Part shown: piece by piece, positions 22,356 to 64,000 of the stretch
How the letters are laid out: each line of letters opens with the position of its first letter
Position numbering within the stretch: position 1 is the first letter of the stretch
Virus record (IMG/VR): IMGVR_UViG_3300013117_000027
Source of the DNA: a virus
Reading direction: 5' to 3' (one strand)
Length of the DNA: 64,000 bases
Position numbers and translations under genes: made by a program
The notes under the pieces: model-generated
Database searches by the model: none
Seen by the model: only the letters and a program-made list of their open reading frames with translations
Told to the model about the DNA's origin: nothing

Positions 22356-22370
22356 GAGAAGGGGATAACA

Positions 22371-22709: not shown

Positions 22710-22733
22710 CAAAGCAACAGGAAGTAGGCATCT

Positions 22734-23447: not shown

Positions 23448-23453
23448 GTAAGA

Positions 23454-25368: not shown

Positions 25369-25381
25369 TTTGAGTAAATTG

Positions 25382-25483
25382 ATGGACAAAAATACTATAA
25401 TAGAAGAACAACAAAAGTGTTTTCATTGGAGCAACTTACAAATTCTCACTGCTGAAGAGAATATGCGTAAAGGAAGTAAATAA
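25382..25483 (+). pseudogene. C-terminal remnant of an HNH endonuclease of the same family as 4861-5487
   Basis: EEQQKCFHWSNLQILTAEENMRKGSK* vs EEVKACFNYKNVQPLWAEDNLKKGDK. Confidence 0.8.
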
Positions 25484-26454: not shown

Positions 26455-26522
26455 AGGAGTTATGCTGATACTTAGAGTCGATACCATAATACCGAATATA
26501 AACTTTAATGTAAGGAGTCTAC

Positions 26523-27208
26523 ATGAGTAAGATAAGTACGATACAAGGAATGGTAGATTTTCCTTTAAGAGATTACCAGATAGAAATATTGAATAATCTA
26601 GAAGAACATAAAATACAGCATTCTATTTAGGTAGACGAATGAGTAAGTCAACATTAATATGTTTAGACGCTATATACAATGCTATGACAGCTAATAGACC
26701 TACAAGAATACTTATGTATACACAGGTAAGAATGAAGGATGCATTATTTGATAAGATTCTTGATTATAGTAGAGGTTTTGCTACACGTATAAGAAATAGT
26801 GATGTTAAAGAGGTGTTCTATGGTAATAACGTTATTAGGGTAGAAGGTATTTATCGACACGGTAATCCAACAAGTGCGATTGGACAATCCGCAGATTATA
26901 TATACGTAGATGAGGCAGACTTTATTACTAATGACGCAATGGAGAATACTATATTACCGATATCAAGTACATCTATTAATTGTAGAGTATGTATGATATC
27001 CACAATGTCTGGAATATCTAATACATATTTTAAACGATGGATGACCGACAGAAACCTAACAAATGTATACAGTAATACATTTAATCATGTAAATACTGAA
27101 CACAGTGTATATGTAGAAAACGATGAACTAGAATGGGAGTACTTAGGTTACTCTTACTTAAAAGAAAATGTTTCTATTAGATGGCAAGGAAAAACACATG
27201 AAACATAA
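26523..27208 (+). pseudogene. Frameshifted, intein-free paralogue of the terminase ATPase domain (~228 aa if the frame is repaired)
   Basis: LRDYQIEIL (Q motif) in one frame; GRRMSKS (Walker A-like), ADYIYVDEADFI (Walker B) and MIST in the -1 frame. Confidence 0.8.
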
Positions 27209-47478: not shown

Positions 47479-47524
47479 TAAGGTAGTGGGAGAGATCCCA
47501 CTTCCATTTACTTGGAGGTAAAAA

Positions 47525-48238
47525 ATGGCAAATGGAATAGGTGGCGCTAACACTTTAAGTGATACACTTACAAGAACGTATAACGCGTTCTCAGGGTGTG
47601 ACATAGTTGCTACAATCAATGGAGTTGTGGTTGGTAACCTGAATGGTATATCTTATTCATCTACTAGAGAAAAGGCACCTATCTATACGATGGGTAATGT
47701 AGATGCTGTAGCTTTTGGTAGAGGTAAACGTGGTCATGCTGGCTCGTTAATCTTCACTAATTTCGACGCATCTCCTTTAACTGACATAATGGACGAAGCA
47801 GAAAAGAGCGGAAGACCACTTCATTATTACGCTAAAGGTAGTGATGTTCCAGCTGGAGGCAGAAGCTTCTTACTAGGACAACAAATCGACGAAGGTGATC
47901 TACGAGCATTCGGACATTCTAAACTTGCAAGACCGAACTACGCTGACCAACTTCCACCGTTTACTATAACTTTAACAGGACAAAACGAATACGGTAATAC
48001 ATCTGTGATGGCAATCTTAGGTGTAGAACTTATAAACGAAGGTTCTGGTATGAGTATAGACGACATCGTCACAGAGACACAAATGACGTTTGTGGCTCGT
48101 GGTATTATACCTTGGAGACGTGTGGTAGGTGGAGATCTAAGAGCTTTTGATCCTGCTACAGTAGGACCATCATCTCCTCTAGCAGCAGTTAGAGCAGCAT
48201 GGGCAGCACGAAGAGTACAAGAACAACAAGGTAACTAA
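47525..48238 (+). CDS. Tail tube protein
   Basis: Follows the sheath; FSGCDI, ISYSSTREKAPIYTMG, GKRGHAGSLIF, GMSIDD. Confidence 0.85.
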   Translation: MANGIGGANTLSDTLTRTYNAFSGCDIVATINGVVVGNLNGISYSSTREKAPIYTMGNVDAVAFGRGKRGHAGSLIFTNFDASPLTDIMDEAEKSGRPLHYYAKGSDVPAGGRSFLLGQQIDEGDLRAFGHSKLARPNYADQLPPFTITLTGQNEYGNTSVMAILGVELINEGSGMSIDDIVTETQMTFVARGIIPWRRVVGGDLRAFDPATVGPSSPLAAVRAAWAARRVQEQQGN

Positions 48239-48244
48239 TCATAA

Positions 48245-48270
48245 TAGCCCGGGTAACTGGGCTACTTTTT
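48245..48270 (+). terminator. Intrinsic terminator after the tube gene
   Basis: TAGCCCGG-GTAA-CTGGGCTA-CTTTTT. Confidence 0.85.
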
Positions 48271-48286
48271 CTCCAAAGGAACAGAT

Positions 48287-49627
48287 ATGGCAAGAAAGTT
48301 CTACACAAAGAATTTCTTAGATCCTGCTGAAGATTTACTAAAAAATGTAGAGCTTCGCGGAACAAATGTAGTGGCTGGAGGTCCTATAGCTACAAAAACT
48401 ATAGGTGAGTATTCTCCTATACAACAAGCTAAGGATGTACAAAATCTGGGCGGACAGACTGTAGCAGGTAATATGCAAGACGGTCCTCTACAGAGTCGTG
48501 TTCCTTTTCAAGAAGATATGTTACATACATATAGTGGTACAGATGTTACTGTAGCTATAGTATATAACGAGCATATACTTTTACTTAATAATGTTGAGAC
48601 ATTCGCTTGGTCTATTCATAGAGAGAAGGTTCCTGTGAGAAGATTAGGTGATACTAACGCTAAGAATTATACGTATGGATCCAGGACAATAGCTGGTTCT
48701 ATAGTTTTTGTACAGTTTGACGAGCATCCTTTATACGGTCTTTTTCAGTTCCTTAATGAACGTACCGCTAAGAATACACGATATAGTTCGCCATTATCAG
48801 ACGATATCCCTCCTTTTGATATTATACTATACTTTTCTAACGAAGCTGGTGCTGGATCTATAATGAGATTCTACGCAATAGATATAGCTGATGAAGGTGG
48901 AGTTGTAAGTATCAATGATATATACTCTGAGAATACAATGCAGTGGGTATGTAAAGATATGGATCCTATGATATCTGAAGGCGAAGTAGGTTCTTGGAAA
49001 GCACTTTTATTTCAGAAGCAACTAGAAGGTAAGGTTGTAGATGAACAGTTTACTGCTATGCTTAGATATAGACAGAAACTAGAAAATGATGTATCAAGAC
49101 TCTCTGCGGAGATACAGACTATTGATAAACAAATAATAGAGTTAGGTACAAGAAATACCGACGTGAACGGCATAGGAACTATGGCTCGTACAAATATGGT
49201 TAACTCTGATCCGGGTATCACACAAAGAAGAAACGCACTTACCAAACAAGCTAATATAAAACAAAGTAAGATAGATAGATTGGTAGCAGAGATATCTAAA
49301 GTAGATGCATCTATCGCGGCTTACGAACAATCTAATATGACTTGGGACATGGACGCTAACCTATATGGTATGACTAGGTCGGAAAGGTATATTAAACCGT
49401 ATACCACTAATAATGTCGACGGAACTATAGCTCCAGGATATCAACCTTATGGAGACTATGATGACATTGTTACTAATAAACCTGAAGATGAATCACCTCT
49501 CCAATATCAAGGAGGAGCTAAAGGTAGTAATCCTCCGTACTATAAGAAGGGCGGTTATAAGCCTAGACCTTATGTAGATCAAAGACGTCCACCTCGTAGA
49601 GGGGATCAACGTTATCCATCTCAATAG
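48287..49627 (+). CDS. Tube-fold paralogue (tube initiator/baseplate) with a coiled-coil extension
   Basis: YSGTDV, WSIHREKVPV, GSRTIAGSIVF, VSINDIYSE parallel the tube motifs. Confidence 0.75.
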   Translation: MARKFYTKNFLDPAEDLLKNVELRGTNVVAGGPIATKTIGEYSPIQQAKDVQNLGGQTVAGNMQDGPLQSRVPFQEDMLHTYSGTDVTVAIVYNEHILLLNNVETFAWSIHREKVPVRRLGDTNAKNYTYGSRTIAGSIVFVQFDEHPLYGLFQFLNERTAKNTRYSSPLSDDIPPFDIILYFSNEAGAGSIMRFYAIDIADEGGVVSINDIYSENTMQWVCKDMDPMISEGEVGSWKALLFQKQLEGKVVDEQFTAMLRYRQKLENDVSRLSAEIQTIDKQIIELGTRNTDVNGIGTMARTNMVNSDPGITQRRNALTKQANIKQSKIDRLVAEISKVDASIAAYEQSNMTWDMDANLYGMTRSERYIKPYTTNNVDGTIAPGYQPYGDYDDIVTNKPEDESPLQYQGGAKGSNPPYYKKGGYKPRPYVDQRRPPRRGDQRYPSQ

Positions 49628-49636
49628 GAGACCTAA

Positions 49637-52318
49637 ATGCCTTACGATATAAGAAAAAATGAAGAAAAGTTAGCAAATCTTCAACAACAACACAAGAATG
49701 GACAGACACGAGGAGATCTATTAGCCCCAGACGTTAACGATATACGTCATAACTATAATACATATAGATATGATTACTTTAGTGGAGCACAGGCTAAAGT
49801 GTTTTTCGGTGATGTACTAGTGGACGATATTGTTACGCTTAGTTATGCAATGAGACAGACTAAAGAACCCATATACGGTTATGCTTCTCAAAGGTACGAT
49901 GCGGTTGCTATGGGAACTGTAATAGGAGAGGGTTCACTTACTATAGCTTTTAAAGAGGTAGGTTATCTTAATGTTATACAGTCTTACTTAGAAAACCAAA
50001 GAGAAGGTATAGATCTCGCGAAAGATAATGTTATCAGACGACTAACAAGTGGTAGAGAAAGAAACATTTCACAAGAGATACAGAATACGTCTACTTTATC
50101 AGCAGTGATGGCTCCTAACCTTACTCCTTCTCTTGTAAGAAGATCAGAGAATATCGAGAAGATTCTAGACGATCTAAAAGAGAAAGATATATCTCCTTTT
50201 AAAGTTCGCGGTAGAGAAGATGGCACTATTACTACAGGTGCTCAAGACTTTGACGATATGGCAGAACTCTTAGAAGATACTATCTGGGGAGATCACAATG
50301 GTAAACCATTTGATCTAAAAGATGTAGAGTTAAAGAGAGCAGATGAGTTCGATTACAGGTATGGTCGTAGCGGTAAGATAGGTATCAAAGCTGGTAACAG
50401 AAATAACTACAGAGATACTTTAAATATAATGGTAATTTTTGGCGATATAAACGACTTCAAAGCGGAGCATACATTTGTTTTATTAAACGATGTACACTTT
50501 AACTCACATTCAATGGTTATGGGTCCAACCGGTGATCCTATAGGAGAAACGTATAACTTTTTCTTTCATGATATGAACAAGTCTTTATCTACACAAACTT
50601 TTAATGTTAACGGTATCAAGTTAAACGTAGGAACAAAGAATGAGGATATTACTCTTCCTAGAAAAGAAGACATGGAATACCTAAATGACTTTATAGGTAG
50701 ACCTGAACAATTCTTTAAGATCAACGTAGTTTCTGCTTTTAGAGGCGGAGTATGGACTAATGATATACCGTTATTCTTCGAAGATAAAGCTAGTAAAAAT
50801 AATCAAGTAGGTTTTACTAGAAGAGACGATATACCTTATGTTCCTCAGTTAACAAAGTTTGTAGAACAAACTGTTACAGAGAAAGCGTTAGGACAAACAG
50901 ATTTACCAGAGAAACTATTAGTAAAGATAGAAGCAGAAAGCAACGATATACAAGGCACAGAGACTATGCACTTTATCTTAGATAAAGGATCAGACTTCTC
51001 ATCTTTATACGTTGTAACTGTTCCTACTAAGAATGACTTCTACGCTGTTAATCTTGTACAACGTGAAGACTTCTTTTTTAATCCTGCTCCACCTGAACCA
51101 ATCTTAGAACCTATACAGTCACCTGATCTTAATAGTGAGACAACTGTTACAGATCCTAAGACTGGAGAAGTTTTCACATCTGCCGGTTCACAAGAAGATA
51201 TTGATACAGGACCTAACGTCTCAACGTTTGCTGATACAGGTAAAGTAGATAATACAGATCCAGTGTCTCCGTTAGATAAGACACAACAAGATATTATAAA
51301 TGAACAACAACAACTTCTAGATCAACAAGTGCAAACACTTAATCAACAAGTTAAGAGTGAAGGTCTCACACAAGCTGAGTATGATGCTAGGATTAAAGCT
51401 CTACAGATTAGTAATCAAGCATTACTACAATCTCAGGTTAATGCATTAGAAGCTGATAAGAAGTTAATACAAGATTTAGGTAGTACTCCAGAATCAAGAG
51501 GACAACTTCTAGGGGACAGGACAGCAAAAGAGAAAGCATCTTTTGAAGCTATATACGGTCCAGGAAGCTATGAAACTTCTCTACAAAAACGTAATAAAGA
51601 GATTATAGAATCACAAACAAGAGGTAATAATCCAGATCCTTCAGATGTTCAACAAATATTACCTGATAGTTATCAACTTGAAGGGATAAGTAATAAGCAA
51701 GAGTATAATGGTACTTACTCAGAGACTCCAGGTACCGATGCTCCAGGATTTGTTCCTAGAACATCACCTATAGATAAACATTTACCTCAGTTAGATAAGG
51801 TAAGAGAAGACTACGGAGAAATAGCAGATAGAACTGCACAAAACTATCCAGACATAGATAAAGAAACTTTACTAGCTATTATATACCAAGAGTCTAAAGG
51901 TTTTAGATATGCTAGACCGCAAGATCCTAGAACTGGTAAATTCTTATCAAGCTCAAGAGGTGTTGGTCAGTTTAAAGAAGGAACAGGTAAAGATGTAGGT
52001 TTTGAGAAAAGACCTTCTAACTATAGGAAAGGTACAACAGAGTGGGATAGAGAAGTTTATGCAGATTGGTATGATCCTAATAAAGCTATTCCAGCTATAG
52101 CTACTTATCTACAACGCAATGGAGATAAGAAGTGGTTGGAAGATCTTAAGTACTCTAATCCTAAAGCTTATCAACAGGTAAGGAATTCTTTTCATCACTC
52201 AGGACCATATGGTAAGTTACAAAGACAAGGTCAGATTAATACAGCAGACCCTAATACAGTTAATTGGTTATCAAATGTTGAAGCATGGAAAGAGTATTAT
52301 AAACAATCATCACAATAG
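49637..52318 (+). CDS. Tube-fold/baseplate hub protein with a C-terminal lytic transglycosylase (SLT-like) domain
   Basis: YFSGAQ, YAMRQTKEPIYGY; C-terminal LLAIIYQESKG..SSSRGVGQF..YDPNKAIPAIATYL. Confidence 0.75.
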   Translation: MPYDIRKNEEKLANLQQQHKNGQTRGDLLAPDVNDIRHNYNTYRYDYFSGAQAKVFFGDVLVDDIVTLSYAMRQTKEPIYGYASQRYDAVAMGTVIGEGSLTIAFKEVGYLNVIQSYLENQREGIDLAKDNVIRRLTSGRERNISQEIQNTSTLSAVMAPNLTPSLVRRSENIEKILDDLKEKDISPFKVRGREDGTITTGAQDFDDMAELLEDTIWGDHNGKPFDLKDVELKRADEFDYRYGRSGKIGIKAGNRNNYRDTLNIMVIFGDINDFKAEHTFVLLNDVHFNSHSMVMGPTGDPIGETYNFFFHDMNKSLSTQTFNVNGIKLNVGTKNEDITLPRKEDMEYLNDFIGRPEQFFKINVVSAFRGGVWTNDIPLFFEDKASKNNQVGFTRRDDIPYVPQLTKFVEQTVTEKALGQTDLPEKLLVKIEAESNDIQGTETMHFILDKGSDFSSLYVVTVPTKNDFYAVNLVQREDFFFNPAPPEPILEPIQSPDLNSETTVTDPKTGEVFTSAGSQEDIDTGPNVSTFADTGKVDNTDPVSPLDKTQQDIINEQQQLLDQQVQTLNQQVKSEGLTQAEYDARIKALQISNQALLQSQVNALEADKKLIQDLGSTPESRGQLLGDRTAKEKASFEAIYGPGSYETSLQKRNKEIIESQTRGNNPDPSDVQQILPDSYQLEGISNKQEYNGTYSETPGTDAPGFVPRTSPIDKHLPQLDKVREDYGEIADRTAQNYPDIDKETLLAIIYQESKGFRYARPQDPRTGKFLSSSRGVGQFKEGTGKDVGFEKRPSNYRKGTTEWDREVYADWYDPNKAIPAIATYLQRNGDKKWLEDLKYSNPKAYQQVRNSFHHSGPYGKLQRQGQINTADPNTVNWLSNVEAWKEYYKQSSQ

Positions 52319-52361: not shown

Positions 52362-52667
52362 ATGGGAAAAGAAGTTACACAAGACATGATTAATGAATGG
52401 AAAGTTCAACACGGTAGTGTTTTTAGAGTTCCAGTTGGAGATATAGATATATACTTTACTACTCTAACTAGAGAGAACTACGTAGAGATCATGGGTAGAC
52501 AAAATACAATTCCTACATTCGATCCAGAGGTAGAGACTGTGAAGATATGCGTTCTAAATGAACTACCAGATGGTGCTCTTGATAATAAAGGCGGAATCGC
52601 GACTGTTGTCCATGAACATATCATGGTAAAGAGCGGTTTTGTTGTAGTAGAATCTGAAGAACTATAA
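52362..52667 (+). CDS. Tail assembly chaperone
   Basis: INEWKVQHGSVF..IYFTTLTRENY..IMVKSGF; position before the tape-measure locus. Confidence 0.7.
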   Translation: MGKEVTQDMINEWKVQHGSVFRVPVGDIDIYFTTLTRENYVEIMGRQNTIPTFDPEVETVKICVLNELPDGALDNKGGIATVVHEHIMVKSGFVVVESEEL

Positions 52668-52690
52668 CGACCAAATATTAATTAGGTAAT

Positions 52691-52726
52691 AAGGGGACGG
52701 GAGTTATATTCCCTTCCCCTTTTTTT
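52691..52726 (+). terminator. Intrinsic terminator
   Basis: AAGGGGACGGGA-GTTATAT-TCCCTTCCCCTT-TTTTT. Confidence 0.85.
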
Positions 52727-52739
52727 GTATGGAGGAAAC

Positions 52740-53366
52740 ATGACAAAAAATACAAAGTTCTATAAAGCTAAAGTAGAAGGTTCAGACGATACTATTATAT
52801 ACAGAACTCTTACTGTTAAAGAGTTAGGTATTGTAAATGGTATACAAAATCCTGCTTATAAAAATGAACTTACTGCAAAGCTTGGAATAACAGAAGGATA
52901 CTCTACAGACTTACATTACACTGCTATTAATCAGATAGGTATAGATATACTTAATAAGTCTACAGAAATAATGACCGACAAAGATTTGTTCGATATAGTA
53001 GTAGATACTTACAGAGCATCTGTTCAAGACGATACTACATTAGAGTTAATAAAACATATACTTACTGTGATGCCTAATCTTTCGATACAATATCTTTTAG
53101 ATCAGACATACGCAGATCTGATAGAGTTAGTATGTTTTTGTGAGAACGTAAGTGGTAAGAAAATCTTTCAACGTAAATCGTTTACACAACCACCGATGCC
53201 AGCAGATCCTTTTCAGGATAATAGTAGTAAAACATTAAATCTACAAGGCGTAGATCATACACTTTCTCCTATCCAAGAGTTCGACGGGAAGAAGTATCTT
53301 CATGAAGATAAAGAGAAGTCTCTTGTCGATAAGATGAAGGAAGATCAAAAATTCTTTAAGGATTAA
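52740..53366 (+). CDS. Second tail assembly chaperone-like protein
   Basis: IIYRTLTVKEL motif; ATG 52740 after GGAGG; precedes the giant gene. Confidence 0.55.
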   Translation: MTKNTKFYKAKVEGSDDTIIYRTLTVKELGIVNGIQNPAYKNELTAKLGITEGYSTDLHYTAINQIGIDILNKSTEIMTDKDLFDIVVDTYRASVQDDTTLELIKHILTVMPNLSIQYLLDQTYADLIELVCFCENVSGKKIFQRKSFTQPPMPADPFQDNSSKTLNLQGVDHTLSPIQEFDGKKYLHEDKEKSLVDKMKEDQKFFKD

Positions 53367-53368
53367 CT

Positions 53369-56300
53369 ATGGCTTATTACGATCCAAGAACAAGTGACGA
53401 AAGATACTATGATCCTCATAGGAATACTAGTGGTAGTCTTACTAGTAGCGTCACGTCTGGTATAGGTTCATTTGCTAAAAATGCTGTAGGATACATGGTT
53501 ATGTACTCTGCTATGACGTTCGCGGGTGGCGTCACTAGTAAGTTCATAGGTAATATAGCTAAAACGCAAGCTCTTAAAGGTACAGGTACTATAGCTAAAA
53601 GAATATCTGCCCTAAAGGCTCCTACCTTAGGTAAGATAGCTAAGCAATTCACACCTGTGCGTCACGCTGCTACAAGAGTGAGGATGGCCACGCGTCCTTT
53701 AAGACAAGCCTATAAAAAGAGAGCTAGACTTCTCGAACGAGTTAATAGGAAAGATTCGTTATTAGGAGATAAAGCAAGATTTACTAGTGCTTTTAGAAAC
53801 GGTAAGACATTAGCAGCAACAGCAGGAAATCTTTTATATAAACATGGAATCAAAGGATCTGTAGCAGGATATGCTTGGGATAGTGTAGCCGGTAACCTTC
53901 CTATGTATGGCTTAGAAGAAAAGGCTGCTTGGAATGTTCCTGGACACGTAATGAATTACGCTAAATATATGAAGGATAATATCATTACATTTAGCGCGTT
54001 TGGCGCTATCGGTCCTATATATAAAGGTGCTAGGGGTACTATAGGTCTAGGTCTAAGAAACGTAATGGAGAAGAATACTGCGTTTAGAGATAAGATTTTA
54101 GGTAACTTAGCTAAGATTACAAGACCTAGATACTCGTCAGTTCAAGCTCCTACAAAAGCTACTAATTCTATATTCAAAGAAGATGTTAATAATTTTAATA
54201 CTGCTAATTCTTATAATGTCTTTAATAAAGCTATAGATGCAACAAAGGCTGCTGGTAAAACGTTTTACTCTGCGTTTATAGAGAATGCTAGAACAATGTT
54301 CGCCGAAGCTGGTAGACATGGTTCTCATAATATTCATAAACCTACAAAAGGAAGTGTTACATCTTTCTTATCAAGGTTTAAGAAGAATATAACTGATCAT
54401 TGGCAAATGCATCGCGAGCAAGCAAGGTATGGAAGAACTGTAGGTGTTCTTGAGTCCGAAGGTATGCGCACAATGAAGACCTTTGAACACTTAGGTAACA
54501 TTGAAAGTACAGCCGGACAAGCATTAGAACAGACTACAGCTAAGAATACCAACATGAATCTCATTAACTCTATACGTGACGATCAGTTAAAACCTAAGAA
54601 TTTTTTAGCACAAGTCCTAAGTCTTAGACCTACTGTTACTGGTGATGTTATGAATACCGACTATATCAGTAGAGTAGGTAGTAACTTCGCTAAGTACTTT
54701 CCTAAGAGCAAAGCTCATGTTGTTGATCAGGCTATGAGTAATGTTAGAATGGGTAATGATTATTATTCAAGAGGTAAGTTCAATGTAGACTTATCAATGC
54801 TTAGTCCTCTACATCAGTTAAAGAGGGTTACTAATAAGATAATGGGTCTTAATCTTTCTTTTATGATCGGACTACCTCCTGTAGGAAGAGATCTATCTCT
54901 AGGTAACATAACTGGTTGGAACTCATTAATGGGCGGTAGTGTAAGATCTACTCCTTTTAATAAAGATACGACAGGACTAGGTCTCATAGTTAAGTCTGGT
55001 GGAGTAACAGATACTAGAGGCAATCTTGTACAACGTGGAACTCCTAGAACATTACAACAACTAGCTGCCGATACTTTAGGTGAGAACATGAGTGATAACC
55101 TAAACGTATCTCTTATTAATGGGAAGTTCTATGCTGCTGATGGAGTCAACCTTACCAATCTTAATTCAATGAATACTGTTCTTAAATATTCTCATCCTGA
55201 GATCTTTGGTAAAGCAGGAGAAGCAAAACTTTCTAATATTAAAGAATGGATTTATCATAGCTCTAGAGAACCTGGTAGTATCATGGAAGCTAATAAGTGG
55301 TTAACAGACGCTAATAGAAATACTGCGTCTAATCCTTTTCAATGGGCAATGAAGAAACTTGATTGGGGAGTACCAGAAGCTATTCCTAATGCGTGGAGAA
55401 AACTCAAAGAAATACTAACACCAGGACGTATACGTCATGCTGGTAAGAACTTGAATCACTCTCAAGATCTACAGGCAGAAATGTGGGAAAATTTATTAAG
55501 TAAAAGAATCGATTACGATAAACTTAAAGCACATATACCTATTATGCGTGACTCTATGGAACATACTGGGCAAGAAGTCGGTATGTTGATGCAATCTCCT
55601 ACTATATACCAAGAGATTGCTCATAATAGCAGATACCTTCAAGCTAATCAAATGGACTCAGCTATATTTCATAGCGATGAGAAGTTTATGACAAAACTTT
55701 TCAATATGCAAGAGAGTGCATTAGATCAAAATGATGTCTTCTGGAAACTAATGAAGAACCCTGATTCTAAAGCTATTTACGAGACAGCATTATGGAATCC
55801 TAAAAAAGCCAAGGATGCTATTCCTTTTAAGAGACAAGGACGATTATCTGATTATAACTCAATGAATGTACTGAAGACTCAGTTTGTGACAGAAGGTCTT
55901 AATGTTGACTATTCTATGACTAATATGCATCCATTCGTAGATGCAGCTGATACTTTGTTTAAACAAGGACATATATCTGGTACTCAATCTACTGCTATGA
56001 AGATGTATGGTTTTGTTAGTACGTTATTCGCTGATGGCAATCTAGATAACTTCGCTAAAGGAACTCCTACACCTCAAGATAAGACAGCCTTAGGTGCTGT
56101 TATTAATACTTTTAAAAAGAGACACAATATTGAACTAGAGCACGCTATGGACTACATTAGTAGAACAGAGTTTAGAACTCCTAGTAGAGATGGTAAGTTG
56201 TTTCAAACTTTGAAAGAGACAATCTTAGATCCTAGACTTCTTCCTAGTGTAAGAGAACAAGTTTATGATAAGAGTCCTTTCTTTGCTTTAAGTGTAGGCG

Positions 56301-59300
56301 ATAACGGATCTGGTAAGTTTCAAACCGGCATTAAGAAAGCATTAGATATTGGAGCAGAGCGTCTTACTAACCTTATTAAGATGACAACAGGTCTTAGGAG
56401 AGATCCTTTTAAGTACGGTGACGGTGTACGCGGTGCAGCCAGATTTATTAGTACAAGAGGTGGACAGTTAGCTGCAGCAGGACTTGCTTATAAAGCGTTA
56501 GATGCGCTCATAGCAGATAATCCTATGCTCGACGAGACAGCTCTTGATCAAGGTATAACAGGATTTATCGCCGATAATGTAGCTAAGACTCATTTACTAT
56601 CATCAAGAATAGCTAATATGACAGGTATAGCTGGCGTAGGTAGATACTTAGACGGTTTAATGCCAGGGTTTGTATCTAGTGCTCCTGGGGCTATTGTCGG
56701 AGCTGCTCTAAACTGGCGACGAGGAATAACTGAGACAGCTGTAGGAGCTGTTAAAGGTGCTATCTCTAATAGAGTTCTTTCGCCATTAATGCCTGATATG
56801 ACTAAAACTTACGATCAGTTAGAAGCCGAGTACTCAGGTAAAGAAGAAGTTCCTATCATCGAAGGTAGAATGTGGCTCATGGGTACTACTCCATGGCAAG
56901 GTAAAAGAGTTATTGGATGGAGACCTAACTGGTATCAACGTATGCATTCGAGATGGAAAGCTTCTGATAGTTTATACGGTAGTGAATTAAGAAAGCTTTT
57001 ACATGAGCCTATATTCCCGGTTGGAATAAGTGTTGGAGACATTATCGACCCTTACTACATGGAACGAAAACACTACTTCTCAAGGCCTTATGCGGAATGT
57101 ATTTATCCGCAAGCATTTGTTCAAATACATAATGGTATTAAAATGGTTAAGGATATTGTAAAAGGTGATAAGATATACGATGTGGATGGTGTGATTTATA
57201 ATGTTAAAGATGTTACTAGTAGAAATGTTAAAAATAATGAGAATATTCACTCTGTTAATTTGGTAGGTATTCATGAACCATTAATAATAAGCGAAGATCA
57301 TAAACAACCAATTATAAAAGATATTAAATGTAAGTATAAGTCAGCATCGAATAAATCATGTGTAGGAGAACACAAAGGGATATGTAAAAAATGTAAAAGT
57401 AAAAGAACCTCGTTTGAAATTGATTGGGTTGAAACAAAAGATATAAATGTTGGTGATTTTCTAGTTAAACCTATAGTTAGACCAGTGTATAATGGTGATG
57501 TTATACAATTATCAAAATATATCAACTTTCGTAACTATGTTGTTGAAAAAGATATATGTTATATTATCGATAAGAATAATAAAAAAACAAAAACAAATGC
57601 ACAAAATACATTCCGTATTGATGACAAAATAGCTTATTATTTTGGATTGTATCTTGCTGAAGGTTGGATAAACTTTGGAAGAAACAAACCTCATACAGTT
57701 AATACTGTTCATAATATGAAAGAATATGATTATGTTAAAACATATATTACACATATGTGTTCAGTATTCAAATGTAGTTACTCAGAGGAAAAACATGATA
57801 ACTATGTAACATTTCATATACATAATGTTCTGTTAGCTGAATTAATATTTGGTCTATTTAATAAAGCATCTGATAAAAAATGTATTCATTTTACTAAGGA
57901 AATAGATAGAAAAATAGTGGCTGGAATTATATTCGGTGATGGTCATTATGATATATCAAATGTTGTCTTAACTAATACATCATTAAATATTCATGGATAT
58001 GTTACAACTGTTCTTGAAAATGATATGATTCCAATATGTATTAAAAAACATTGTAATAACGGAAAACAATCATATAGAACTTCATTCCCATATTCGTATC
58101 TAGATGAGTATAGAATGAAGTATGATTCTAACTATAAAAATAAATGTATACAAACTCCTAAAGGGCGATCTAATAGAATATATTTTCGTAATGGATCAAT
58201 ACTAAGACGGGTATTATCTAATGATATTATAGAGTATAAAGATAAACTATACGATATAGTAACAGATTCACCAAAGCAAAGTTTCACTTTATTATCTCAT
58301 TGTATACATAATTCTGCAGACTTTGGTGCAGATATACCGTTAGGATTAGGACCTATAGTTAGTGCTACATTAGGACAAGTTATTAAACCTAAGAAACAGA
58401 TGCATAGAGAGTTCATGGAAGGTGACGATGTTATAGGTGACTCAGACTTCGCGGCCAATCCGCCTCCTACGTATAAAGAGATGAGAGGTATGATGAAGAC
58501 TGGTACATGGAATTCTAATAGTATTGGCAGCAGATCATCATTTATGGGAACAGCTAGATATGGTGGAACAAAACTATATGGACAACGTATGGCTGACCAA
58601 GTACTAGATAACTTTGAAAGTGCAATGGGTCTTGTAGGTTTCGCAGGTCATTCTATTAGACAAGGTCTTACCTCGGACGCTGCTATTATTCCGACTGTTG
58701 AAACTGCTGGTAGAATAGCTTCACAGTCAAGGTCTTACTATGATATGAATCTTGGTGGTCTCGGTGTATACTGTTTACCTTATGATGGTAAGGTTCTAAC
58801 ACCTAACGGACTAACTAATATAGGTGAGATTAATAGTGGTGACATAGTTTACGATCAATGTTATAGTAAAAAAAAGGTAACGAATACATTCTCACGTATA
58901 TGTGATGATGATGAGCGAATGTATACCTTTACTTTAAACGCTGGCAAAACGCAAATTGATTGTACATGGAATCATCCATTAGCTATATATAGGAAAGAAA
59001 CATGTCATGACGGTAAAGTAAAACCATGTATACCTAATAGTAAAAAACATTGCACTATATGTACGAAACAAGATAAAGAAGTTTATTGGGATTGGGTCCA
59101 AGCTCAAGATGTTAAAGTCGGTGATTACGCAGTGATGCCTCTGCCTAAATCAGATACTAGTGTTGAAACTGTTGATCTTAGTGCTTATTCAGACTATTCT
59201 TTTTCTGATAAATATATATATACGAGAGCAGGTAACGGATATATAACTGCATTAGAGATGCTAGAACATAATCCATCATTAACAAGAAAACAACTAAGAG

Positions 59301-62300
59301 AGTATGTAGATGATAAAGATGCTAAAGAAGCACTATATTCTATTAGAAAAAATAAAATACCTACTAGATACGGTAGATATTTAGATATTACACATAATAT
59401 TGCTTGGTTTATAGGATGGTGGTTAGCTGAGGGATCATCTAACATTAGGAATGAAGAAGTGATGTTTTCATTAAATATTAATGAACTACATATAGCTAAA
59501 ACTCTGGGGAAGATATATGCTGAATCGTTCGGTGGAAAGTTTAGAATATATGAGTATCCAGATAGAACAATATGTGTGTTAGTTATAAAGAATAAAGTAT
59601 TAGCATCTTATCTTAAGTCGTTTGGTAACGTTTATACTAAATCTATGAACTCACTAGTTCATCTATCTGATAATAAACTTAGAGCTTTAATCGATGGAAT
59701 AATTCAAGGTGATGGTTGGATAAATCATAAGTTACAGCGAGGAGGATTTAAGAGTGCATCATCTAAACTTGTTAGAGATGTGTGGTTATCGTTATTTAGA
59801 CTTGGTATTCAATCATCTATAACTATAGATTATCTCGAAAAAGCTAATGGCAGATTGTTAAATGGAAAAGTTAGAAAAGATCATGTAAGATCTGAACTTC
59901 AGATGTCTAGAGGTGGTTATACCAATTATAGTGATGTTGTTCTAAATCATAAAAAATCTAAAGATGTCTCAACTGGTAGAGTGTTTACTAGAGATGGAAA
60001 CTTATACATTAAGATATCAAATATATCTTCTCTTGATTGTTCAGGAACAAAGGTATATGATATAGAAGTAGAAGAATCTCATTGTTTCATAGGAAACTAT
60101 TTACTACTTCATAACTCTGAAGCATTAAGAAGGTTTGTTACTAAACCTGATTGGAGAGAATACGGAGTTAATCCTATTCCTAATTTGATGCCTAACTGGC
60201 TTCCTGGAAAGTTCTTAAAGGGTGATCCTTTTTGTGTAACAGCGTCAACTATGATAGAAGTCAATGGTAATAATCTTAAGCGAGCGGAAGATGTTACAAC
60301 AGACGATCTTATAAGAACGCACACTGGTAAACTAGTAAAACCATCTTTTATAAAGAAAAGAAGTATGAAAAATAGTGAATCATTATATAGATTAAAAGTA
60401 TCATCGTTAAGTTCGTTTCCAATAGAAGCATCTGAAGAGCATCCTATATGGACCGAATCTGGGTGGAAACATATTAAGGATATTAATATCGGCGAATATG
60501 TAGGATATCCTATTTCTGATATTAACGATCTTACTACAACTGATAAGATATTAGACTGTTCTAAACTCACACCATATCCATTTGATCATAAATATATATA
60601 TACGTCTGGTTGTGATCAAGAATTCGTAGATATGATAAGTTATATCGAAACTATTCAATCTTCATTCAAAAGAGGAGAACTTAAAAATCTTCTATTTAAG
60701 AATAACTGGGATCGTAGAAAGTTCGAAAGAGCACAAGTTGCAGTGAGAAATAATATAAATAGACGTATTCCTCGCTATATAGATATAAGTTCGCCAGAAT
60801 GGGGATCGCTGATTGGTTATTATTTGTCTGAAGGATGTATAAATATAAAAGATGATAAGTTTATTGGGGTAGGATTCGCTTTTAATATTAATGAGAAAGA
60901 ATATCATGATGAAGTAATGTCGTGTTTAAAATCAGTATTTAATATTCATTCTAAGTTATATCAAGCGAAAGGAACCAATGGTTGTAGTGTAATAGTTAAT
61001 AATTTAGCAATCCCACATATACTATGTGGTTTGTTCGGCAGATACTTTGATGAAAAACATATAGGTTTGCAGCATATTGATTCTATAAAAGAAACAGTTA
61101 GAACCTTGATAAATGGCGATGGATCTTATTATTTTGATAGAGGAAAACCAAGACTATCATTGAAGTTAGAGAATCACCAACTACTATATCAGATAAGACA
61201 AATATTATTAAGTTATGGGTATGTTGGATATATAAATGATAATAATTTAATAATTAGAGGTCAAGCAGCTAAAGAATGCGCTTTGTTTATTAATACAACC
61301 AAATATAAGGACACAAAGGACTCATCTTATACTTGTAGACACACGTATATAAAAGATGGATACGTATGGATGAGGGTATTTGATAACATAGTTATTAAGA
61401 ATGAAAATGTTTATGGTTTTCAAGTGGACACAGATGACTCATTTTGTACAGCTGGGATAGCTACTCATAACACAAAGATAAATAATGGAGAGTTAAGACT
61501 TCCTGGTCCTGCATACGAGAAGACACACGCTGGTGTAGATAAGTCAATGCCCGCTAGAGCGTCTATGTTGGGAAGTCCTACTGAACATAGTATTCAGTAC
61601 TTTACTGGATTGTTACCTCCTCATTTAAAAGAACAGTACGATATTCTTGAGACAGGAACTAGATACCATGAACAAATACAACAATGGTTAGCAGCCGAAA
61701 ATCTTTTAGTACAAGCTGAAGCTCTAGTGTATGACGAGAAGAATAATATCTCTGGTCACGTCGATGCTATCATTAAAGACGGTATGGGTGGTAGAGGTAA
61801 GAAAGCTCTTGAAATTAAAACTATAAGTGAAGAAGGCCTTAAGAGATTAGACGGTCCTAAGTGGCAACACGTTGGACAGATAAACTTTTATATGAACCAG
61901 TTAAAGCTTAAGAAGGGTGGCATCCTATATGTGTCTAGAGACAATCCTGCTAACTTTAAGATGTTTGATGTTAACTATAGTCATAATAGACTAGAGAAAG
62001 ACTTAGAGAAACTTCATAAAGCTAGATCTGTATCTTCTCAAATGCTTGCTAAGAGTATAGAAGGTGACGGGTATGGATTTTCTTATTCTTGGTTAGACAG
62101 ACTTTATATCTTATCTGACGTAGCTCCTACCTCTAAAGAATATAAAGAAGCTAAGTTCATAGTAGAAAGACAGATAAAAGCTGGTATGCTAGATCCTGAT
62201 GGAATAGCTAAGTATCACAGAGCTAAGAAACACAGAGATGCTACTGTTAGAAAGTACGAATTGTATCCTCTAAGATTTAAAGGAAGAGTCATGTCTCCTG

Positions 62301-64000
62301 ATACAGAAGCTAATATAATGTCTATCAATGATAATATAAAAGCTGGAGCAGAGTACAGTCTTCCTGAAAGATGTTTCGATAAAGATACCAATATTGAAAC
62401 TGATAAAGGAATAAAGCGTATATGTGATGTATTGATTGGTGACTATGTGAGAACACATGATAACAAGTGGAAACAAGTATATAACACTTCTAATAGGAAT
62501 GTTGATCATAATGAAAAGGTGTATGAAGTTAAAGTTCAATCAAGAGAAAAAGTTAAAGTTACAGAAGAGCATCCATTCTATGTAATAGAATCTAAACAAT
62601 GTCATAATTGGTCTCATAAAGATTCTGTTTGCGTTCTAAAGAATAATAAGAAATGTAGTAAATGTAAACACACATATTATAAAGAATATGAACATCAATG
62701 GATACCAGTTAAAGACCTAACTAATAACCACTTTGTAGCAACTCCAATATTGGATATAACTGAAAACTCAGAACCTATCGATGTGTATTCATTATTAAAA
62801 GAATATACAAATATAGAAACAGTTGATAATATTATACGATTCTCAAATTATAATGTTAAAGGAAAAAAACAAGGGATTCAGATACCAAGATATATAGAAC
62901 GAACACCAGAACTATATGAGTTATTTGGATGGTATCTTGCTGAAGGATCAAGAAATTCTGCAAAATACCCATATAATGGCTTAAACTTCGCTCTTAATTC
63001 ATCAGAAGAGAATATAGCACAACGAATATGTTACTTATTTAATCGTATCTTTGGAGTTCGTTCTTTCTCTATTAAGAATGTATCAGATAATGGAATAAAT
63101 GTAAGAATATATTCATCTCTGGTTTCGTTAGTGTTTCAGAAGTTATTTAAACATGGCTCAAATAATAAATATATTCCATCACTTATATATAATACATCTG
63201 AAGATAATCTTAAATCTATGATTAACGCTGTATGGTTAGGTGATGGTTGTTATAATAAGAATAGAAAAATAATAAAAGTTATATCATCTTCTTTAATATA
63301 CGATATAAATAACTTGTTATTAACATTAGGATATATGCCGAGTGTTAACTTTATTAAAGGTGGAAAGAAAAAAAAGATATATCGTAATAATAAAGAGTCA
63401 GTTATTAGTGACTGTTGGACTGTTGAGTGGATTGAGAATCCAAAATGTACAAAAGATAGATATATACATGATGATTATTATTATACACGAGTATTATCTA
63501 AAAAAAACATATCAATAGATGAAGTATATAATATCGATGTTATTGATTCTAATTCATATATAGCTAATGGTTTGGCTGTTCATAACAGTATTGGGGCTGC
63601 TTGGGAAAACTTCACTAACACTAATACGTTTCTTGTCAACAAGTTCTTTGCTTACAAAGATCCGTTAGAGCATTACAAACAGTATCAATTGTACGGTCAA
63701 GAATATACACCATGGACAGATCCTTATGGAAGTTTTATAGCTCCTCAAACTAGAACTATGATGGCTCAAGAGAATCCTATAAGTGCTGCAATTAATTGGG
63801 GTTTTGGACTTCCTTATCTATTAGGTGGAAGAGCTGGAGGTATATATGGAGCAGTTGCAGGAGGTGCATATGGTGCTATTCATGGTATGGTAAGAAAAGC
63901 TTCTGGAACAATTTATACACCAGAACATATGCAGAAAGAGCGCCAGATAAATGACTATTTCGATCAGTTAAAATTCGACAGGAACATGAGAATGGCGTCT
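53369..64000 (+). CDS. Giant tape-measure-position virion protein (>3544 aa, 3' truncated) with four inteins and a PD-(D/E)XK nuclease domain
   Basis: ATG 53369 (MAYYDPRTSDERYY); same frame at every checked point to DQLKFDRNMRMAS at 64000; the ORF track lists no + ORF here, as expected for a frame with no stop; Gly/Ala-rich TM-like segments. Confidence 0.9.
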   Translation, partial: MAYYDPRTSDERYYDPHRNTSGSLTSSVTSGIGSFAKNAVGYMVMYSAMTFAGGVTSKFIGNIAKTQALKGTGTIAKRISALKAPTLGKIAKQFTPVRHAATRVRMATRPLRQAYKKRARLLERVNRKDSLLGDKARFTSAFRNGKTLAATAGNLLYKHGIKGSVAGYAWDSVAGNLPMYGLEEKAAWNVPGHVMNYAKYMKDNIITFSAFGAIGPIYKGARGTIGLGLRNVMEKNTAFRDKILGNLAKITRPRYSSVQAPTKATNSIFKEDVNNFNTANSYNVFNKAIDATKAAGKTFYSAFIENARTMFAEAGRHGSHNIHKPTKGSVTSFLSRFKKNITDHWQMHREQARYGRTVGVLESEGMRTMKTFEHLGNIESTAGQALEQTTAKNTNMNLINSIRDDQLKPKNFLAQVLSLRPTVTGDVMNTDYISRVGSNFAKYFPKSKAHVVDQAMSNVRMGNDYYSRGKFNVDLSMLSPLHQLKRVTNKIMGLNLSFMIGLPPVGRDLSLGNITGWNSLMGGSVRSTPFNKDTTGLGLIVKSGGVTDTRGNLVQRGTPRTLQQLAADTLGENMSDNLNVSLINGKFYAADGVNLTNLNSMNTVLKYSHPEIFGKAGEAKLSNIKEWIYHSSREPGSIMEANKWLTDANRNTASNPFQWAMKKLDWGVPEAIPNAWRKLKEILTPGRIRHAGKNLNHSQDLQAEMWENLLSKRIDYDKLKAHIPIMRDSMEHTGQEVGMLMQSPTIYQEIAHNSRYLQANQMDSAIFHSDEKFMTKLFNMQESALDQNDVFWKLMKNPDSKAIYETALWNPKKAKDAIPFKRQGRLSDYNSMNVLKTQFVTEGLNVDYSMTNMHPFVDAADTLFKQGHISGTQSTAMKMYGFVSTLFADGNLDNFAKGTPTPQDKTALGAVINTFKKRHNIELEHAMDYISRTEFRTPSRDGKLFQTLKETILDPRLLPSVREQVYDKSPFFALSVGDNGSGKFQTGIKKALDIGAERLTNLIKMTTGLRRDPFKYGDGVRGAARFISTRGGQLAAAGLAYKALDALIADNPMLDETALDQGITGFIADNVAKTHLLSSRIANMTGIAGVGRYLDGLMPGFVSSAPGAIVGAALNWRRGITETAVGAVKGAISNRVLSPLMPDMTKTYDQLEAEYSGKEEVPIIEGRMWLMGTTPWQGKRVIGWRPNWYQRMHSRWKASDSLYGSELRKLLHEPIFPVGISVGDIIDPYYMERKHYFSRPYAECIYPQAFVQIHNGIKMVKDIVKGDKIYDVDGVIYNVKDVTSRNVKNNENIHSVNLVGIHEPLIISEDHKQPIIKDIKCKYKSASNKSCVGEHKGICKKCKSKRTSFEIDWVETKDINVGDFLVKPIVRPVYNGDVIQLSKYINFRNYVVEKDICYIIDKNNKKTKTNAQNTFRIDDKIAYYFGLYLAEGWINFGRNKPHTVNTVHNMKEYDYVKTYITHMCSVFKCSYSEEKHDNYVTFHIHNVLLAELIFGLFNKASDKKCIHFTKEIDRKIVAGIIFGDGHYDISNVVLTNTSLNIHGYVTTVLENDMIPICIKKHCNNGKQSYRTSFPYSYLDEYRMKYDSNYKNKCIQTPKGRSNRIYFRNGSILRRVLSNDIIEYKDKLYDIVTDSPKQSFTLLSHCIHNSADFGADIPLGLGPIVSATLGQVIKPKKQMHREFMEGDDVIGDSDFAANPPPTYKEMRGMMKTGTWNSNSIGSRSSFMGTARYGGTKLYGQRMADQVLDNFESAMGLVGFAGHSIRQGLTSDAAIIPTVETAGRIASQSRSYYDMNLGGLGVYCLPYDGKVLTPNGLTNIGEINSGDIVYDQCYSKKKVTNTFSRICDDDERMYTFTLNAGKTQIDCTWNHPLAIYRKETCHDGKVKPCIPNSKKHCTICTKQDKEVYWDWVQAQDVKVGDYAVMPLPKSDTSVETVDLSAYSDYSFSDKYIYTRAGNGYITALEMLEHNPSLTRKQLREYVDDKDAKEALYSIRKNKIPTRYGRYLDITHNIAWFIGWWLAEGSSNIRNEEVMFSLNINELHIAKTLGKIYAESFGGKFRIYEYPDRTICVLVIKNKVLASYLKSFGNVYTKSMNSLVHLSDNKLRALIDGIIQGDGWINHKLQRGGFKSASSKLVRDVWLSLFRLGIQSSITIDYLEKANGRLLNGKVRKDHVRSELQMSRGGYTNYSDVVLNHKKSKDVSTGRVFTRDGNLYIKISNISSLDCSGTKVYDIEVEESHCFIGNYLLLHNSEALRRFVTKPDWREYGVNPIPNLMPNWLPGKFLKGDPFCVTASTMIEVNGNNLKRAEDVTTDDLIRTHTGKLVKPSFIKKRSMKNSESLYRLKVSSLSSFPIEASEEHPIWTESGWKHIKDINIGEYVGYPISDINDLTTTDKILDCSKLTPYPFDHKYIYTSGCDQEFVDMISYIETIQSSFKRGELKNLLFKNNWDRRKFERAQVAVRNNINRRIPRYIDISSPEWGSLIGYYLSEGCINIKDDKFIGVGFAFNINEKEYHDEVMSCLKSVFNIHSKLYQAKGTNGCSVIVNNLAIPHILCGLFGRYFDEKHIGLQHIDSIKETVRTLINGDGSYYFDRGKPRLSLKLENHQLLYQIRQILLSYGYVGYINDNNLIIRGQAAKECALFINTTKYKDTKDSSYTCRHTYIKDGYVWMRVFDNIVIKNENVYGFQVDTDDSFCTAGIATHNTKINNGELRLPGPAYEKTHAGVDKSMPARASMLGSPTEHSIQYFTGLLPPHLKEQYDILETGTRYHEQIQQWLAAENLLVQAEALVYDEKNNISGHVDAIIKDGMGGRGKKALEIKTISEEGLKRLDGPKWQHVGQINFYMNQLKLKKGGILYVSRDNPANFKMFDVNYSHNRLEKDLEKLHKARSVSSQMLAKSIEGDGYGFSYSWLDRLYILSDVAPTSKEYKEAKFIVERQIKAGMLDPDGIAKYHRAKKHRDATVRKYELYPLRFKGRVMSPDTEANIMSINDNIKAGAEYSLPERCFDKDTNIETDKGIKRICDVLIGDYVRTHDNKWKQVYNTSNRNVDHNEKVYEVKVQSREKVKVTEEHPFYVIESKQCHNWSHKDSVCVLKNNKKCSKCKHTYYKEYEHQWIPVKDLTNNHFVATPILDITENSEPIDVYSLLKEYTNIETVDNIIRFSNYNVKGKKQGIQIPRYIERTPELYELFGWYLAEGSRNSAKYPYNGLNFALNSSEENIAQRICYLFNRIFGVRSFSIKNVSDNGINVRIYSSLVSLVFQKLFKHGSNNKYIPSLIYNTSEDNLKSMINAVWLGDGCYNKNRKIIKVISSSLIYDINNLLLTLGYMPSVNFIKGGKKKKIYRNNKESVISDCWTVEWIENPKCTKDRYIHDDYYYTRVLSKKNISIDEVYNIDVIDSNSYIANGLAVHNSIGAAWENFTNTNTFLVNKFFAYKDPLEHYKQYQLYGQEYTPWTDPYGSFIAPQTRTMMAQENPISAAINWGFGLPYLLGGRAGGIYGAVAGGAYGAIHGMVRKASGTIYTPEHMQKERQINDYFDQLKFDRNMRMAS
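57098..58312 (+). mobile_element. Giant-protein intein 1 (405 aa, LAGLIDADG)
   Basis: YAE|CIYPQA...SEDH...FGLYLAEG...GIIFGDG...CIHN|S. Confidence 0.92.
58772..60115 (+). mobile_element. Giant-protein intein 2 (448 aa, LAGLIDADG)
   Basis: GVY|CLPYDG...TWNHP...IGWWLAEG...GIIQGDG...LLHN|S. Confidence 0.92.
60233..61471 (+). mobile_element. Giant-protein intein 3 (413 aa, LAGLIDADG)
   Basis: GDPF|CVTAST...SEEHP...IGYYLSEG...LINGDG...ATHN|T. Confidence 0.92.
61553..62030 (+). other. Cas4/RecB-like PD-(D/E)XK nuclease domain inside the giant protein
   Basis: GTRYHE, QAE, ISGHVDAII, LEIKT, HVGQINFYM, GGILYVSRD. Confidence 0.8.
62372..63586 (+). mobile_element. Giant-protein intein 4 (405 aa, LAGLIDADG)
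   Basis: PER|CFDKDT...TEEHPF...FGWYLAEG...AVWLGDG...AVHN|S. Confidence 0.92.

Follow-up and report, generated by a model that had tools for sequence, protein, structure and literature searches.

What would a nuclease do inside a giant protein that is encoded among the tail genes of a phage? The question is raised by a stretch of 64,000 nucleotides from an uncultured giant phage, the IMG/VR record IMGVR_UViG_3300013117_000027, which was analysed at its full length and is called the window here. From position 53369 to its end runs one open frame, which a first-pass annotation, made from the letters of the sequence, had described as a hidden protein in the tape-measure position with a Cas4/RecB-like nuclease domain. 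The gene is predicted to encode the precursor of a virion protein of the family of gp145 from Bacillus phage 0305phi8-36, with a predicted PD-(D/E)XK nuclease nested in it. The explanation that best accommodates the whole, and in which we have moderate confidence, is that this protein is built into the tail, is ejected from the particle and carries its nested nuclease into the cell, where the enzyme would act on nucleic-acid ends.

The frame begins with an ATG at 53369, preceded by an AAGGA Shine-Dalgarno sequence, and continues for 3,543 stop-free codons on the plus strand to the window end. It is the sole long open reading frame (ORF) of the region, where the G+C content is 31-36%; as stop codons are frequent at this composition, a frame of such length cannot be due to chance. 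That the earlier ORF list lacked it is probably explained by its running beyond the window end. The metagenome contig JGI 3300009320 Ga0117909_1000101 (139,679 bp) overlaps the window by 20,632 nt, is identical throughout the overlap, and extends the frame to a TAA that lies 684 nt past the window. With this end the gene has 11,316 nt and a product of 3,771 aa; a database protein of the same length, P0008, is identical over all 3,543 residues present in the window. No stop or frameshift separates the nuclease from the N-terminal part. Completing the gene and removing the inteins in silico, as the first-pass annotation had proposed, divides the precursor into a mature protein of 2,100 aa and four inteins (1,671 aa), so that the earlier length of more than 3,500 aa holds for the precursor and not for the mature protein. 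The parts of the gene are:

53369..64000, plus strand: gene of the predicted gp145-family virion protein precursor, 3,543 of 3,771 codons inside the window
53369..57097, plus strand: extein 1, aa 1-1243; the first ~1,000 aa are lineage-variable and without family match, the conserved core starts at ~aa 1050
57098..58312, plus strand: intein 1, aa 1244-1648, 405 aa; Cys1, ...HN then S; LAGLIDADG-like motifs YFGLYLAEG and VAGIIFGDG
58313..58771, plus strand: extein 2, aa 1649-1801
58772..60115, plus strand: intein 2, aa 1802-2249, 448 aa; Intein_splicing, LAGLIDADG_3; +1 Ser
60116..60232, plus strand: extein 3, 39 aa; conserved scaffold motif NPIPNLMPNWLPG...GDPF
60233..61471, plus strand: intein 3, aa 2289-2701, 413 aa; LAGLIDADG_3, Intein_splicing; +1 Thr
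61472..62371, plus strand: extein 4, aa 2702-3001; GELRLPG scaffold motif, nested nuclease, helical region with LSDVAPTS motif
62372..63586, plus strand: intein 4, aa 3002-3406, 405 aa; Intein_splicing, Hint; +1 Ser
63587..64000, continuing for 228 aa past the window, plus strand: extein 5, part of the conserved C-terminal core

The nuclease lies in extein 4, where the H / E / D / ExK / QxxxY set noticed earlier was located at H2767, E2784, D2799, E2815-I-K2817 and Q2837-xxx-Y2841:

61529..62062, plus strand: nested PD-(D/E)XK nuclease (predicted), aa ~2721-2898, ~175 aa
catalytic codons, plus strand: H 61667-61669, E 61718-61720, D 61763-61765, E 61811-61813, K 61817-61819, Q 61877-61879, Y 61889-61891

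Extein 4 matches PHROG 1706 (E 6e-17) and PHROG 1990, 'Cas4-domain exonuclease' (E 1e-8). Sequence searches beyond these profiles returned little: at E up to 10, exteins 2, 4 and 5 have no Pfam match and extein 1 has two at chance level (E 0.13-0.15), the homologue P0009 matches nothing in NCBIfam, the nuclease extein finds nothing in the Protein Data Bank (PDB) at E<=1, and a peptide-pattern scan of viral contigs with it gave no confirmed locus. A second copy of the domain was not found within the window. An AlphaFold model of extein 4, built on an alignment of 31 sequences, has a pLDDT of 87.9 and a pTM of 0.81. With Foldseek and VIA-align it matches Cas4 SSO0001 (PDB 4ic1; E 1e-6; Z 12.2 over 150 aa at 3.1 A), LHK-Exo (E 4e-5; Z 12.0), lambda exonuclease (E 3e-5; Z 11), MGME1 (E 3e-5; Z 10.4) and Dna2 (E 3e-4; Z 9.9), with 4ic1, 3syy, 1avq, 5zyt and 5ean as the PDB entries matched and RecE, Exo5 and AdnAB among the further matches. 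Over Cas4 SSO0001, lambda exonuclease, RecE, YqaJ and MGME1 the core fold aligns with Z 10-14.7 and 150-177 residues. The same matches recur when the core model of a homologue is searched, and in a library of viral structures the top match is a piece of UniProt A7KUR9, followed by phage Cas4 and PD-(D/E)XK proteins.

The catalytic positions are strongly conserved. In 128 representatives of at most 50% mutual identity, D2799 is kept in 127 and K2817 in 123; an acidic residue stands at position 2815 in 112, and Y2841, Q2837, E2784 and H2767 are found in 118, 116, 111 and 110 of the proteins, respectively, so that each position is retained in 86-99% of the homologues. The fold check by AlphaFold and Foldseek and the motif set, which is that of the Cas4 and lambda exonuclease group, hence agree with the earlier proposal, and we assign the domain, from its model, as a PD-(D/E)XK nuclease of the Cas4/RecB/lambda-exonuclease branch whose activity is predicted. 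It is not a Cas4 in the strict sense, because the Fe-S cysteines are missing; their absence had been noticed before, and in fact, the mature protein lacks cysteine over its whole 2,100 aa. In this respect lambda exonuclease, RecE and MGME1 are nearer to it than Cas4 proper. Unlike the members of this group, which are free-standing or part of a helicase-nuclease, the domain sits within a loop of a virion protein of 2,100 aa.

The lost Fe-S cluster and the missing match to any Pfam nuclease model would also suit a domain that was exapted for nucleic-acid binding, that no longer cuts and that grips the leading DNA end inside the tail. TP1 of the archaeal virus TTV1 is a documented example of a Cas4-fold protein that became structural in the virion (Krupovic et al. 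2015, PMC4625639). Both cases share the recruitment of a Cas4-type fold into a virion protein; TP1 is a Cas4 derivative serving as a structural DNA-binding nucleocapsid protein, whereas the catalytic residues are strongly conserved here. Retention of every catalytic position in 86-99% of homologues with only 30-60% overall identity indicates purifying selection on the chemistry and not on binding alone. Moreover, lambda exonuclease, RecE and MGME1, which are among the top fold matches, are active without an Fe-S cluster. We therefore regard loss of the cutting activity as very improbable.

The identity of the surrounding protein was derived from tblastn searches of phage records, with the nuclease extein and an intein-free homologue as queries. 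Megablast of the 5' part of the stretch against phage records gave no match. The tblastn searches matched ORF145 of Bacillus phage 0305phi8-36 and, in addition, proteins of Moorella phage MTATph1, the Bacillus phages Edson, vB_BceM_WH1 and vB_BauM_KLEB27-3, and Acinetobacter phage vB_AbaM_ME3, which are labelled 'virion structural', virion/structural or hypothetical or carry no label. Residues 1115-1865 of the spliced protein are colinear with residues 605-1624 of gp145 in four high-scoring segment pairs (E 1e-13 to 2e-20) that bridge all four intein sites. The record of gp145 (ORF145, YP_001429636, 'virion structural protein') notes its identification in virions by mass spectrometry, which makes the earlier claim of a virion protein plausible for the window product as well. 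In the gp145-like records found for 0305phi8-36, vB_BceM_WH1, Edson and vB_BauM_KLEB27-3 a nuclease is not annotated.

The window protein and gp145 with its Bacillus relatives share the colinear ~1,000-aa core. It further agrees with gp145 in gene position, with the tail chaperonins on one side and the tape-measure-position gene on the other, in the lack of cysteine, and in its nested nuclease, which has H, E, D, (D/E)xK and QxxxY in both. They differ in that the window protein is split by four inteins and has an unrelated N-terminal half, and in that gp145 has an extra insert of ~70 aa between the D and DxK motifs. At E<=1e-3 the family has 646 representative proteins; among the best 150, almost every one has ~2,000 aa or more, and an alignment of these 150 is about 20 sequences deep over the N-terminal half and 100-150 deep over mature residues 1150-2000. 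On the related contig Ga0645780_03536 (8049-14230), the gp145-like gene was called as two ORFs of 568 aa and 1,409 aa that lie 245 nt apart, which may come from a frameshift, an intron or an assembly error.

The gene order supports this assignment. The tube paralogues and the two small chaperone-position genes upstream are present as described before, together with sheath and tube:

44572..52318, plus strand: genes of the tail sheath (968 aa), the tail tube (237 aa) and two paralogues of the tube (446 and 893 aa); syntenic to orf139-142 of 0305phi8-36
52362..53366, plus strand: two small genes of 101 aa and 213 aa, placed where 0305phi8-36 has its tail chaperonins gp143 and gp144

When the window and Ga0117909_1000101 were compared with 0305phi8-36, Acinetobacter phage ME3 and Moorella phage MTATph1, a common order of sheath, tube, tube paralogues, two chaperonins, gp145-like gene, second giant gene and hub was found. 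From sequence and synteny, the gene is assigned to the precursors of gp145-family virion proteins.

The nuclease is not a constant part of this family. In MTATph1 the scaffold motif GEvRLPGeAY is followed by three residues and then by YGAVDRFLILADVAPYS, so that the ~175-aa nuclease core is exactly missing, and gp035 of ME3 has no match to the nuclease extein. A database search that used the core region upstream of the nuclease as query yielded 97 further family members; 57 of them have the nuclease and 40 do not, and the spacing from GExRLP to ILADVAP is ~206 aa with and ~31 aa without it. On a FastTree tree of the C-terminal core, which was computed with the nuclease excluded and has several long branches, presence and absence cluster by clade and need 5 changes, compared with 35 in shuffles. 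A single gain or a single loss may account for this distribution. Since some members lack the nuclease, the core function of the family must lie elsewhere; judged by these sequences, the nuclease is a nested accessory payload, and the scaffold would have a separate function of its own.

Large insertions of a different kind interrupt the conserved core. All four inteins start with Cys1 and end in HN, with S, S, T and S as the +1 residues in order. Intein_splicing (Pfam cut-off 35.8 bits) is passed by intein 2 (38.2) and intein 4 (42.5), with intein 3 below it at 24.2; LAGLIDADG_3 (cut-off 22.5 bits) is passed by intein 2 (36.0) and intein 3 (39.1), with intein 4 below it at 18.0. Intein 1 has no Pfam match of its own and is similar to the other three by BLAST (E 1e-7 to 3e-14). 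The four are not recent copies of one another, since their pairwise identity is only 22-25%. The spliced sequence aligns without interruption over every junction with the intein-free gp145 and with homologues of ~2,050-2,100 aa. By these sequence features the insertions are class 1 inteins with a LAGLIDADG homing endonuclease, and their splicing is predicted.

In the family, large insertions recur at about nine sites of the core (mature coordinates ~1172, ~1235, ~1396, ~1436, ~1450-65, ~1574, ~1652, ~1725-50 and ~1969), and some relatives reach 4,392 and 4,920 aa. The site of intein 3, at mature ~1436, is the one most frequently occupied. The gp145-like gene is thus an intein hot spot with four sites filled here, a state uncommon among structural genes that marks its core as being under strong constraint.

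Other selfish elements were observed in the window, which contains at least seven inteins including these four. A 1,417-aa ORF with 29 cysteines (27168-31421), the C-terminal part of which matches the terminase large subunit, has two intein regions (Intein_splicing and LAGLIDADG_3 at aa 85-484, Hint at ~aa 637-750). A 785-aa P-loop protein, terminase-like by PHROGs (9180-11537), has an intein/LAGLIDADG insert and is followed by a free-standing GIY-YIG/NUMOD1 homing endonuclease (11687-12469) and by a ribonucleotide reductase fragment (12476-13939) that begins at profile position ~195 and may have been split by selfish elements. Past the window, the space between the tape-measure-position gene and the hub-position gene (2,467 aa) holds an HNH / endonuclease VII-like gene of 222 aa and 10 cysteines (28835-29503 of Ga0117909_1000101), probably another homing endonuclease.

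The conserved C-terminal core was modelled with AlphaFold over 1,070 residues of the intein-free homologue P0004, using 46 relatives. The model (pLDDT 82.9, pTM 0.82) shows a compact body, in which two conserved Gly-rich helical hairpins flank the enzymatic core:

56654..56716, plus strand: hydrophobic segment GLMPGFVSSAPGAIVGAALNW, rich in Gly and Ala, where the conserved core begins; a helical hairpin in the homologue model
63758..63901, plus strand: glycine-zipper-like segment GGRAGGIYGAVAGGAYGAIHG with a family-conserved GxxxGxxxGxxxG, a long helical hairpin in the model

The GLMPGFVSSAPGAIVGAALNW hairpin weakly resembles the glycine-zipper membrane proteins SlyB and TraT (Z 5-5.7). The fold search of the whole core gave clear matches for the nuclease region alone; other parts, which such a search barely tests and for which we do not claim a new fold, reached Z ~5 to glycine-zipper or membrane helices. 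For the N-terminal 1,050 aa all ESM Atlas scores were <=0.85 and provide leads only.

A protein that is giant and cysteine-free, that has Gly-rich hydrophobic segments as in many tape measures and whose gene lies directly 3' of two chaperone-position genes could also be the tape measure, alone or as one of two parts, with the nuclease riding on the length ruler. The earlier label of a tape-measure position implied such a ruler. Two giants, however, follow the chaperonins, and Hardies et al. (2007) gave the tape-measure role in 0305phi8-36 to the second, gp146, mainly on a correlation of length and tail (PMC2147016). The corresponding gene is present past the window:

Ga0117909_1000101 21309-28631 (window-equivalent start ~64677): second giant gene, 2,440 aa, starting 8 nt before the stop of the gp145-like gene

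The two genes are translationally coupled by this overlap. The proteins in the second position vary in length among the phages compared (1,309, 1,603, 2,338, 2,440 and 2,537 aa), while the gp145-like proteins have a constant core of ~1,000 aa behind a variable N-terminal half. No tape-measure model in Pfam, PHROGs or NCBIfam matches the gp145-like protein, and the core model is compact and globular rather than an extended coil; the N-terminal 1,000 aa lie outside this model, which leaves some room for a ruler function, as does the basis of the gp146 assignment. We consider such a function quite unlikely. The label is wrong in our view because the gp146 slot holds a separate 2,440-aa gene and the ~1,000-aa core is compact: the gp145-like protein is the upstream neighbour of the tape measure and not the tape measure itself.

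The second giant has one cysteine in its 2,440 aa, and no family match was found for it. It has no significant similarity to gp146 by BLAST, and Hardies et al. likewise reported no significant similarity between lineage members for the protein in this position (PMC2147016). A homologue on Ga0645780_03536 is similar over the full length (E 6e-35), and in this alignment DNDVD at residue 1934 is matched by DFDGD at residue 1880; gp036 of ME3, in the same gene position, has DHDQD. A DxDxD motif was not found in 0305phi8-36 gp146 or in Moorella CDS0027. The DNDVD of the 2,440-aa protein may serve to bind metal in an RNA polymerase borne by the tail, a suggestion made by these five residues only; searches with hidden Markov models (HMM), of PDB sequences and of the atlas gave no support to it. 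The ESM Atlas search with the first 1,200 aa gave scores of <=0.85 throughout, which are leads only, with one row for a DnaQ-like exonuclease cluster at 0.81. The YonO-like RNA polymerase listed for 0305phi8-36 by Iyer et al. (ABS83659.1; PMC7824862) was considered as gp146 and rejected, since gp146 is ABS83704.1.

The motif bears on the substrate of the nuclease. DxDxD is the metal motif of RNA polymerases that was used to find gp96 of phage P23-45 (PMC10770324), and its occurrence as DNDVD, DFDGD and DHDQD in second giants would fit RNA as the target, either in shut-off of host mRNA or in 5'-end processing together with the neighbour's RNA polymerase. Lower-ranked fold matches of the nuclease to herpesvirus SOX/alkaline nuclease (Z 7-8), and to Rai1/Dxo1 and the bunyavirus cap-snatching endonuclease (Z 5-6), point the same way. 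The best fold and HMM matches are, however, all DNA exonucleases, and the polymerase itself is read from a motif that is absent from two of the second giants and unsupported by the searches described above. An RNA substrate hence appears very unlikely.

Both giants are further characterized by their avoidance of cysteine. All 44 cysteines of the precursor are inside the inteins and none is in the mature 2,100 aa; with an average of 0.98% cysteine in the window's other ORFs, the chance of finding zero in 2,100 aa is about 1e-9. Among 66 relatives of intein-free size, 58 have no cysteine and 8 have one. gp145, ME3 gp035 and Moorella CDS0026 have none, and neither have their neighbours in the tape-measure position. 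Even the +1 residues of the inteins are only Ser or Thr and never Cys. The cysteine-free state would mark proteins that must travel unfolded through the tail, and we infer such threading here because the absence or near-absence of cysteine in the protein and its neighbour fits an unfolded passage. In the same module, the 893-aa second tube paralogue (49637-52318) is free of cysteine, and in the sheath and tube genes it amounts to 0.2-0.4%. Cysteine depletion is thus graded across the tail module and not unique to the giant protein.

Conserved catalytic residues in a protein whose homologue gp145 is a virion component would also be expected if the nuclease worked in the producer cell or in the particle, trimming or holding the DNA end at the head-tail join or completing packaging. 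Precedents for a virion-associated nuclease of the restriction-endonuclease fold that packaging requires are T4 gp4 and, in jumbo phages, the TnsA-like 'head completion protein' (Iyer et al. 2021, PMC7824862). T4 gp4 resembles the present domain as a nuclease of the restriction-endonuclease superfamily in a myovirus particle; unlike it, gp4 is a small head/neck packaging protein of the TnsA-like branch that is neither part of the tail core nor nested in a giant protein. The location of the gene in the tail-core block behind the tail chaperonins, away from the head and neck genes, does not favour such a role, and whole clades with the same virion gene plan do without the nuclease, which is unexpected for a packaging step. 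In addition, the avoidance of cysteine that is shared with the tape-measure-position neighbour suggests a common route through the tube. Such action in the producer cell or in the particle is therefore unlikely.

Ejection through the tail, the explanation that we favour, would proceed in several steps. The protein would be assembled into the tail together with the second giant, the tape-measure-position product, with the help of the two upstream chaperonins, and would leave the virion through the tail at infection. Its glycine-zipper hairpins could then anchor it at the entry site, so that a ready-made nuclease would act on nucleic-acid ends inside the cell. Its most likely job would be 5'-3' resection of the terminal repeats of the entering genome, which could prime annealing or concatemer formation; alternatively, host or competitor DNA would be the substrate. 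A 5'-3' exonuclease would suit the resection of terminal repeats and, equally, an attack on host DNA. For 0305phi8-36 a terminal repeat of 6.5 kb is reported (PMC3357382). The nuclease would be an accessory payload on a scaffold with another, essential role, since part of the family lacks it. A more far-reaching version, which we put forward only tentatively, is that in jumbo myoviruses like 0305phi8-36 both giants, cysteine-free or nearly so, form one injected machine that is threaded through the contractile tail and held at the entry pore by its glycine-zipper hairpins, in which the nuclease processes ends (phage repeats, host DNA or RNA) and the DxDxD neighbour transcribes the entering genome.

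Several points weigh against ejection of an active nuclease. Expression, splicing, virion presence, ejection and nuclease activity are all predicted for the window protein. Its virion membership is extrapolated from one mass-spectrometry result, obtained for a homologue of only 28-32% identity. The nuclease is absent from about 40 of the 97 more distant members and from two cultured phages, and hence is dispensable for the scaffold; extein 4 matches no Pfam model at E up to 10 and no NCBIfam model at E 0.1; and the N-terminal ~1,000 aa have no family match. Cysteine avoidance, taken above as a sign of passage through the tail, is also seen in other virion proteins of this phage such as the 893-aa tube paralogue. 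The membrane hairpins are weakly suggested by a hydrophobic Gly-rich sequence and by fold matches (Z 5-5.7) that are within the chance range.

Enzymes that phages carry into the cell are known, such as the virion RNA polymerase of N4, wall hydrolases on tape measures and the Dar proteins of P1. A precedent on a tail-core protein is gp96 of Thermus phage P23-45, in which the tape measure and a virion RNA polymerase are fused (Chaban et al. 2024, PMC10770324). In both cases a nucleic-acid enzyme is carried by a giant tail-core protein that is thought to exit via the tail and to act at the site of DNA entry. The enzyme of P23-45 is a two-barrel RNA polymerase, whereas a PD-(D/E)XK nuclease is predicted here; P23-45 is a siphovirus, whereas the tail is contractile here; and the polymerase is on the tape measure itself, whereas the nuclease is on its upstream neighbour. 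For gp96, activity and early transcription were shown, while the present case is known from sequence and models. The open-access literature searched, which excludes the original 0305phi8-36 genome and proteome paper (Thomas et al. 2007, Virology), contains no description of a nuclease in proteins of the gp145 or tape-measure type, and gp145 appears there only as a virion protein. Enzymes on tail-core proteins are already known; a recombination-type nuclease nested in a giant tail-module protein is new to the literature searched.

Proteins that bear this nuclease are present in hundreds of uncultured jumbo phages and also in the cultured phage 0305phi8-36, whose homologue gp145 has already been found in the particle. 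The near-complete lack of cysteine over ~2,000 residues may mark proteins that pass through the tail. If the nuclease is indeed delivered and active, it would represent a new class of pre-made infection factor, with a role in genome-end processing, in the attack on host DNA or in counter-defence.

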